Shown here: positions 7,251 through 8,026 of the stretch, piece after piece
Layout of the letters: each line of letters begins with the position of its first letter
Position numbering within the stretch: the first letter of the stretch is position 1
From: Escherichia phage EcF-vB
DNA: 64,000 bases
Sequence record: PV683228.1
Strand: one strand, 5' to 3'
Notes under the pieces: model-generated
The model's input: only the letters and a program-made list of their open reading frames with translations
What the model was told of the DNA's origin: nothing
Databases searched by the model: none
Program-made: the position numbers and the translations under genes

Positions 7251-7520
7251 TTACTTCCTCGTTTTAAGAACTGCTAAGATTTCTTTAGAGTCTGGTAAGA
7301 ACCATGTGTAGTGATTTTCTTTGATTTCTGGGTGAGTGTCAACCTTTATTTTGCACTCTTTACCAACATGCTTAAGTTGTGCTGTGACACCTTGCATAAA
7401 GATATGGCACATCACATTATCCATAATGGTTGGTGAGAAATCAATTCGCATATAAGTTTCTTTTGGTCGTGGCAATAGTAAGTAACCTTCTACATAAAAA
7501 GTATCTTCATTCTCTGTCAT
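7251..7520 (-). CDS. hypothetical protein (89 aa)
   Basis: ORF in packed operon. Confidence 0.45.
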   Translation of the reverse strand: MTENEDTFYVEGYLLLPRPKETYMRIDFSPTIMDNVMCHIFMQGVTAQLKHVGKECKIKVDTHPEIKENHYTWFLPDSKEILAVLKTRK

Positions 7521-7786
7521 TGCTGTTTGTTTCCTAATAAAATCATATCAATAAGGTTATTAGCTTTGATTGTGCACTGGTAAAATCCATCACGATAGAA
7601 CTCAAGGGCTGCTGCTACATCACTGCCTGTGTTGCCTTTGATAATATACCGTGATTCTTCTTGAGTGTACTTATCACTCTCGCTTACTTGGGAGTTTTTG
7701 AATGTACTGTTCACTTTGTTCGTTGAACACCCTGACATAGTTATCAGTAACACAAACATTATAAAACTCTGGCTTAGTTTTTTCAT
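7517..7786 (-). CDS. putative lipoprotein (o-spanin-like candidate)
   Basis: Signal peptide ending in lipobox LITMSG-C; additional Cys later in the protein. Confidence 0.5.
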   Translation of the reverse strand: MKKLSQSFIMFVLLITMSGCSTNKVNSTFKNSQVSESDKYTQEESRYIIKGNTGSDVAAALEFYRDGFYQCTIKANNLIDMILLGNKQQ

Positions 7787-7915
7787 ATGTTAGTACCTCT
7801 TTTGTATGCTTATTCTTAGCAAGCACATCTTTCAAATCATTTTTGTAATTGGTGCTCAGTGTGACTAATCCTTCCTGATAAGCATCTTTAGCAACACTTA
7901 TGAGCTTTTGATTGT

Positions 7916-8026
7916 TTAGCTCAGTTTCAGCAACTTGATAGTCTCTGTAAGAGTATCCTCCCAGACACCTGCCCCAACTAAGAAAACAATTATGAAAGTA
8001 GCTTGACAGAACTCTTTAAATGTCAT
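7916..8026 (-). CDS. small membrane protein (37 aa as given); possible N-terminal part of an i-spanin-like protein
   Basis: ATG at 8026 with SD AGGAGA; TM segment ATFIIVFLVGAGVW; the -1 frame stays open downstream and runs into the lipoprotein gene. Confidence 0.35.
   Translation of the reverse strand: MTFKEFCQATFIIVFLVGAGVWEDTLTETIKLLKLS

Follow-up and report, generated by a model that had tools for sequence, protein, structure and literature searches.

The minus strand of the Escherichia phage EcF-vB sequence (PV683228.1) very probably carries, between positions 8026 and 7517, the overlapped two-component spanin genes of a Felix O1-like phage, and the early stop in the first of these genes would be an artefact of one missing G and not a biological feature. 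The pair is already known and is not novel: the Felix O1 spanins have been part of a curated spanin database since 2018 and are annotated in many GenBank records. All positions refer to the window, which is the whole analysed stretch of 64,000 nucleotides.

Relatives of the window and gene order

The window represents the genome of a Felixounavirus, a Felix O1-like myophage, with the spanin genes on the minus strand. A megablast search with window positions 7000-9800 against 50,697 phage records yielded 257 matches, nearly all of them Felixounavirus from Salmonella, Escherichia, Shigella and Citrobacter hosts, with a top identity of 96.9%. A 25-kb query gave the same, mostly Felixounavirus result. 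The gene order in the relatives is rIIA, rIIB, a gene named 'lysin' (182 aa), polynucleotide kinase, a 154-aa hypothetical protein, i-spanin, o-spanin and more hypothetical proteins. No tandem repeats were detected in window positions 1-12000.

Identification of the spanin genes

The o-spanin encoded in the window is 100% identical (89/89) to Felix O1 p015, the o-spanin of SpaninDB, and the i-spanin, once its reading frame is repaired, exactly matches all 115 residues of Felix O1 p014. The overlapped class of two-component spanins is reportedly to be attributed to Summer 2007. It is treated by Kongari et al. 2018 (PMC6139136), in whose SpaninDB supplement the pair of Felix O1 (NC_005282) is classed as 'ovl' (overlapped), a two-component spanin of family JH2. 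There, p014 is a protein of 115 aa (NC_005282 5331-5678) with one periplasmic cysteine and one within the transmembrane domain (TMD), p015 is a protein of 89 aa (NC_005282 5572-5841) with one further cysteine besides that of the lipobox, and the two genes overlap by 107 nt (PMC6139136). In records of the relatives, the homologous site is likewise annotated with an i-spanin and an o-spanin, and the CPT genome announcement for phage Moogle names both spanins for Felix O1-like phages (PMC4319497).

Searches against PHROG profiles assigned the repaired i-spanin to PHROG 1152, 'Rz-like spanin' (E = 5.5e-42, residues 1-116). The o-spanin matched PHROG 4180, labelled 'unknown function' (E = 9e-51), and showed a weak match to PHROG 456, 'Rz-like spanin' (3e-4). 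Neither protein had an Rz (Phage_lysis) or Rz1 match in Pfam at E <= 1, and none to Rz/Rz1 was obtained in NCBIfam; these two collections returned only sub-threshold noise (SH3b_T, NAGLU_N, 2-phosphosulfolactate phosphatase). An earlier note, made from the letters of this DNA, had proposed a possible pair of overlapping i-spanin and o-spanin genes here. The proposal is supported by the identity to p014 and p015, the 'ovl' entry in SpaninDB and the PHROG 1152 match.

The missing Pfam matches, the label of PHROG 4180 and a position that does not adjoin an endolysin or holin gene would also suit an unrelated membrane protein and lipoprotein, acting for instance in superinfection exclusion or receptor blocking, as the function of the family is derived by analogy from its architecture. 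T5 Llp and Cor are examples of such lipoproteins. We give this reading a very slim chance, given that a type II TMD gene overlapping the gene of an outer-membrane lipoprotein is the diagnostic spanin layout (PMC6139136), that the two genes stay paired in Ounavirinae, Kuravirus and Erwinia phages and both partners have conserved periplasmic cysteines, that the i-spanin falls within a spanin PHROG, and that the annotated genes of the examined relatives contained no other spanin candidate.

The i-spanin gene and its frame break

The i-spanin gene (7674-8026, minus strand) measures 353 nt in the window and is split as written; restoring the missing G gives 354 nt, encoding 117 aa and a stop. Its 5' ORF, from 8026 to 7916 on the minus strand, comprises 36 sense codons plus the stop, that is, the '37-codon' ORF described earlier, and its product is MTFKEFCQATFIIVFLVGAGVWEDTLTETIKLLKLS. 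A Shine-Dalgarno sequence AGGAG lies at 8035-8039 (minus strand), 8 nt 5' of the ATG at 8026. The ORF had been credited with a good Shine-Dalgarno sequence, and AGGAG is also the one that SpaninDB gives for Felix O1 p014. The N-terminal transmembrane segment reported for this ORF was recovered as a hydrophobic core at about residues 7-21, with a Kyte-Doolittle 15-residue maximum of 2.14. The hydropathy scan along the i-spanin revealed this single hydrophobic stretch and no later one. A type II topology is predicted for the protein from its sequence, with one N-terminal TMD and the remainder in the periplasm; of the two cysteines, Cys7 is located within the TMD and Cys92 would be periplasmic. 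According to SpaninDB, the N-terminal part of the Felix O1 i-spanin comprises 27 aa and the periplasmic domain 88 aa.

The remainder of the protein lies in a second frame that begins at about 7962 and ends with the stop at 7676-7674; tblastn on the window accordingly matched the i-spanin as two HSPs in different frames. A -1 shift leads into a frame that stays open between about 8015 and 7676-7674. This frame runs on for about 80 codons past the early stop and across the ATG at 7786, as the earlier note had described. The one-base deletion maps to 7960-7962 on the minus strand (position 7962 in the list of indels), where the window has GGG. Alignment with three relatives revealed exactly one missing base: the window reads TCTGGGAGG against TCTGGGGAGG or TCTGTGGAGG, and the relatives share TCTG[G/T]GGAGG at this site, with GGGG in FGS030 and tootiki and TGG preceded by G in vB_CECAV_041. 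The suggestion that the i-spanin needs a one-base repair thus holds in the alignment, where a single G added to the G-run restores the full frame.

The window was aligned as a whole to phage vB_CECAV_041, and tblastn was performed with the proteins of this phage and with every one of its ORFs that reaches 70 aa. Relative to vB_CECAV_041, the window contains at least 10 uncompensated one-base deletions, mostly in homopolymer runs; all uncompensated frame-breaking indels were deletions, with no insertion among them. Besides the i-spanin (7962, G3 instead of G4), they affect the DNA polymerase (38400, A5 instead of A6), DNA ligase (41831, T2 instead of T3), exonuclease (30702, T5 instead of T6), NAD synthetase (two deletions at 30093 and 30303, T5 instead of T6), NrdD (24243, T4 instead of T5), NAMPT (17979, T5 instead of T6), the tail completion protein (62348, T5 instead of T6) and hyp018 (3345, C2 instead of C3). 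Such a pattern is characteristic of homopolymer under-calling. Since replication would be impossible for a phage in which all these lesions were present, the deletions reflect the quality of the sequence.

Public sequences point in the same direction. The i-spanin was found at a coverage of at least 80% in one place in 401 of 401 phage records searched by tblastn, and it was a single piece in every row among the matches listed. The 25-mer spanning the deletion had no match in IMG/VR, nor had a 31-mer with the deletion, whereas 19 contigs there contained the intact 26-mer. No public assembly has the truncated 36-aa product on record. The protein 3' of the break is still identical to that of Felix O1, and hence there is no sign of decay.

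A real deletion would make the phage a natural i-spanin-null Felixounavirus with a pseudogene, in which the o-spanin and a 36-aa membrane stub are made and lysis, lacking spanin function, would take place under shear or when divalent cations are low. Spanins are conditionally dispensable in the laboratory, as known for lambda Rz/Rz1, and spanin-defective phages can still form plaques. In addition, the G3/G4 run falls short of the T5/T6 or A5/A6 length seen at most of the other sites, which makes it a less typical place for an error. Nevertheless, we consider a real deletion very unlikely: the lesions in DNA polymerase, ligase, NrdD, exonuclease and NAMPT cannot all be genuine in a viable phage, and a pseudogene agrees poorly with a gene intact in all 401 relatives, with a downstream frame of 100% protein identity to Felix O1 and with a deleted 25-mer that occurs in no IMG/VR contig.

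Programmed -1 frameshifting or transcriptional slippage at the G-run, yielding both a short membrane peptide and the full i-spanin, was rejected and deserves next to no credence, although a -1 shift at this run would regain the full protein. A slippery heptamer has the form X-XXY-YYZ, which C-TGG-GAG-GAT does not fit, and polymerase slippage would require a run longer than three G. Moreover, the gene is a plain ORF in 401 of 401 relatives, and recoding at this site leaves identical lesions in nine other genes, spread across the window, unexplained. The frame break in the i-spanin gene is thus almost certainly a sequence artefact, as judged from these comparisons, and neither a pseudogene nor a case of recoding; we infer that the actual phage has the fourth G.

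The o-spanin gene and the overlap

The o-spanin gene (7517-7786, minus strand) encodes an 89-aa lipoprotein precursor in the +1 frame relative to the 3' part of the i-spanin gene, with a 19-aa signal peptide and a mature part of 70 aa. Its Shine-Dalgarno sequence GAGGT (7795-7799, minus strand) lies within the i-spanin coding sequence and is the one listed by SpaninDB for Felix O1 p015. The lipobox T-M-S-G|C (residues 16-20; 7727-7741, minus strand) was found by a PROSITE-type pattern match within MFVLLITMSG|C, where Cys20 is followed by Ser at +2 and Thr. This match at Cys20 agrees with the claim that a lipoprotein gene with signal peptide and lipobox cysteine starts at 7786. Correspondingly, SpaninDB gives p015 the lipobox 'TMSG' and the mature start 'CST'. 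The mature o-spanin would begin with Cys20, which would carry the lipid modification. With Ser instead of Asp at +2, the protein is in line with the Lol avoidance rule for sorting to the outer membrane.

The o-spanin ATG at 7786 lies inside the i-spanin gene, which ends with the stop at 7676-7674, and the o-spanin stop (7519-7517) lies beyond it. The stretch read in two frames comprises 113 nt (7674-7786, minus strand) and encodes i-spanin residues of about 81-117 together with o-spanin residues 1-37; it carries the conserved i-spanin motif YEKTKPxFxNxC...FNE. At 113 nt, the overlap in the window exceeds the 107 nt of Felix O1, since the window has CGA where the i-spanin genes of the relatives have the stop TGA (7674-7682, minus strand). 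Read-through of this codon adds Arg-Glu (RE), followed by a TGA-TAA double stop. In the o-spanin frame the change from TGA to CGA is synonymous (AGT to AGC, Ser). The CGA read-through was found in none of the 401 records matched by tblastn, of which the best showed 99.1% identity. In a smaller variant of the view that the missing G is genuine, only this read-through, which adds 2 aa inside the overlap, may be real.

Conservation beyond close relatives

The repaired i-spanin matched 401 phage records by tblastn, with identities of 77% in Mooglevirus, about 30-35% in phiEco32-like podophages and about 27% in Erwinia phages. Individual alignments with the window proteins showed 25% identity for the i-spanin homologue phi32_39 of phiEco32 (Kuravirus) and 28% for CDS0008 of Erwinia phage Coenus, and 30% (phiEco32) and 36% (Coenus) for the o-spanins. 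In Mordin, phiEco32 and Coenus, the 3' end of the i-spanin homologue overlaps an ORF in a different frame that encodes a lipobox and a mature part of 65-70 aa. Both partners in phiEco32 and Coenus are true homologues in the same overlapped architecture as the window pair, although these phages differ from the window phage in genus and morphotype.

An alignment of the i-spanins across genera revealed invariant residues including Cys92 and F101-N102-E103 and the conserved motif YEK..P.F.N.C..D.Y...FNE. The invariant residues of the o-spanin in four divergent homologues include Cys20, Ser21, L61-E62, D66 and Cys71, and the conserved motif is LE(F/W/Y)..D....C....N.L. That both frames are conserved across genera speaks for two genuine genes that function together. 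The pair is not a chance layout, since the same ORFs are annotated as spanins in relatives and are conserved in other genera, with protein identities of 27-36%.

The overlapping ORFs of phiEco32 and Coenus are annotated only as truncated hypothetical proteins. In four phages the o-spanin start is misannotated, with loss of signal peptide and lipobox: the annotated gene starts at Met17 in tootiki (L003 5314-5529) and at an internal GTG in FGS030 (L002 5341-5538), while phiEco32 phi32_38 is annotated at 1793-1966 of L025 with the full lipobox ORF starting at 1706, and Coenus CDS0009 at 1859-1987 of L026 with the full lipobox ORF starting at 1712. Mis-called or missed o-spanin starts have been documented by Kongari et al. 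(PMC6139136).

The upstream neighbourhood

Upstream of the spanin genes, the earlier note had placed a secreted lytic transglycosylase at 9227-9775. The 182-aa ORF (9775-9227, minus strand) and its signal-peptide-like N-terminus were recovered, while the enzyme identity found weak support: the score against Pfam SLT (PF01464) was 18.9 bits, below the cut-off of 21.3 bits. The protein belongs to PHROG 600, of no known function, a phmmer search gave no PDB sequence match, and a single-sequence AlphaFold (AF2) model had a pLDDT of 49 and was unusable. Motifs ES, GIFQ and YNAG, recognised by eye, suggest a putative family 1 lytic transglycosylase. Relatives name the gene 'lysin' or 'putative lysin', and the Mordin record mentions a lysozyme-like domain and similarity to T4 RegB. 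It is not the recognised endolysin of the genus; the 'endolysin' of vB_CECAV_041 is located at 19111-19575 of its record, in a part of the genome outside the window. The gene overlaps that of the polynucleotide kinase (8554-9249) by 23 nt. In Felix O1-like phages the lysis genes are scattered and form no cassette (PMC4319497). As evidence for a 'lysis cluster' this neighbour is weak, and the spanin call is independent of it.

An intrinsic-terminator-like hairpin, AGGCTCCTTCGGGAGCCT followed by TTTTT, is located at 8050-8067 (minus strand), at the end of the upstream 154-aa gene and directly before the ribosome-binding site of the i-spanin gene. As they follow directly after this hairpin, the spanin genes begin a new transcription unit. 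The hairpin is invariant in three relatives, and a terminator is annotated at the same place in Mordin. Two strong terminator-like hairpins on the minus strand, both with a TTCG loop, GGCTCC-TTCG-GGAGCC (8050-8067) and GGCTGC-TTCG-GCGGCC (9839-9862), bracket the SLT-like gene, the kinase gene and the 154-aa gene.

A segment of about 2.1 kb (9865-11904, minus strand) between rIIB and the SLT-like gene is absent from vB_CECAV_041. It contains, all on the minus strand, an N6_Mtase (PF02384) ORF at 11005-11904, a 279-aa ORF at 10100-10939 and an 86-aa ORF at 9865-10125. FGS030 and tootiki have a D12-class methyltransferase and a hypothetical protein inserted directly 5' of the i-spanin gene, and the 279-aa protein shows 27% identity (E = 3e-12) to this hypothetical protein. 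A single methyltransferase module present at both sites was rejected, as the methyltransferases are unrelated and the partner is only distantly related. With related partners and unrelated methyltransferases, these are two distinct modules of a methyltransferase and a homologous partner at two sites flanking one gene block.

In the early-gene region of the window, repeated intergenic elements of about 85-115 nt were observed at about 1396-1481, 2332-2439, 2621-2736, 3669-3750, 4378-4483 and 4720-4819. They match a number of intergenic sites in vB_CECAV_041 with 88-96% identity, have the core TCCCTCCC(C)GTTGAT in common and are probably repeated promoter/terminator units.

Comparison with known spanins and proposed function

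The window pair resembles Felix O1 p014/p015 in its Shine-Dalgarno sequences, the lipobox TMSG|C, the overlap in the +1 frame and the flanking genes. It differs in the one missing G that splits the i-spanin gene, the CGA in place of TGA, the RE extension and the 113-nt overlap. Lambda Rz/Rz1 likewise combine an inner-membrane protein with an N-terminal TMD and an outer-membrane lipoprotein encoded in the +1 frame, with disruption of the outer membrane by membrane fusion as the presumed role (PMC6139136), and both partners have periplasmic cysteines. The window pair is an analogue of lambda Rz/Rz1, to which no sequence homology is detectable. The lambda genes are embedded, whereas those of the window are overlapped and, unlike in lambda, lie outside any lysis cassette (PMC4319497). 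The mature window o-spanin has 70 aa and no proline, in contrast to lambda Rz1 with 40 aa and 10 prolines (PMC6139136). For the Felix O1 i-spanin, SpaninDB predicts about 66% of the periplasmic domain as helical and, unlike in lambda, no coiled coil. Without proline and coiled coil, structural details may therefore differ from lambda. P2 LysB/LysC, the prototype overlapped spanin, belongs to the same genetic class, with an o-spanin gene that begins within the i-spanin gene and ends past it (PMC6139136). SpaninDB places P2 in a family other than that of Felix O1.

By analogy with the lambda Rz/Rz1 model, as drawn from the architecture and the lambda, T4 and P2 paradigms, the pair would break the host outer membrane at lysis. 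The literature consulted on spanins and Felix O1 contained no experiment on the Felix O1/JH2 spanin family. The i-spanin would be a type II inner-membrane protein, anchored by its N-terminal helix and with a mostly helical periplasmic domain of about 88-95 aa. Its partner would be lipid-modified at Cys20, comprise 70 aa and be sorted to the outer membrane, since the +2 residue is Ser and not Asp. Binding of the two periplasmic domains would form a bridge across the periplasm, and each partner likely forms homotypic disulfides via its single conserved periplasmic cysteine (i-spanin Cys92, o-spanin Cys71; one each according to SpaninDB). Removal of the peptidoglycan mesh by the endolysin would then leave the complexes free to cluster and to fuse the inner and outer membranes, which would destroy the last barrier to phage release.

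The biological importance of the finding is small. In practical terms it is of use for annotation and quality control: no 'pseudogene', 'frameshift' or 'recoding' found in this window should be trusted until the reads have been checked. A genuinely missing G, if true, would show that spanin loss is possible in the wild or during stock propagation.
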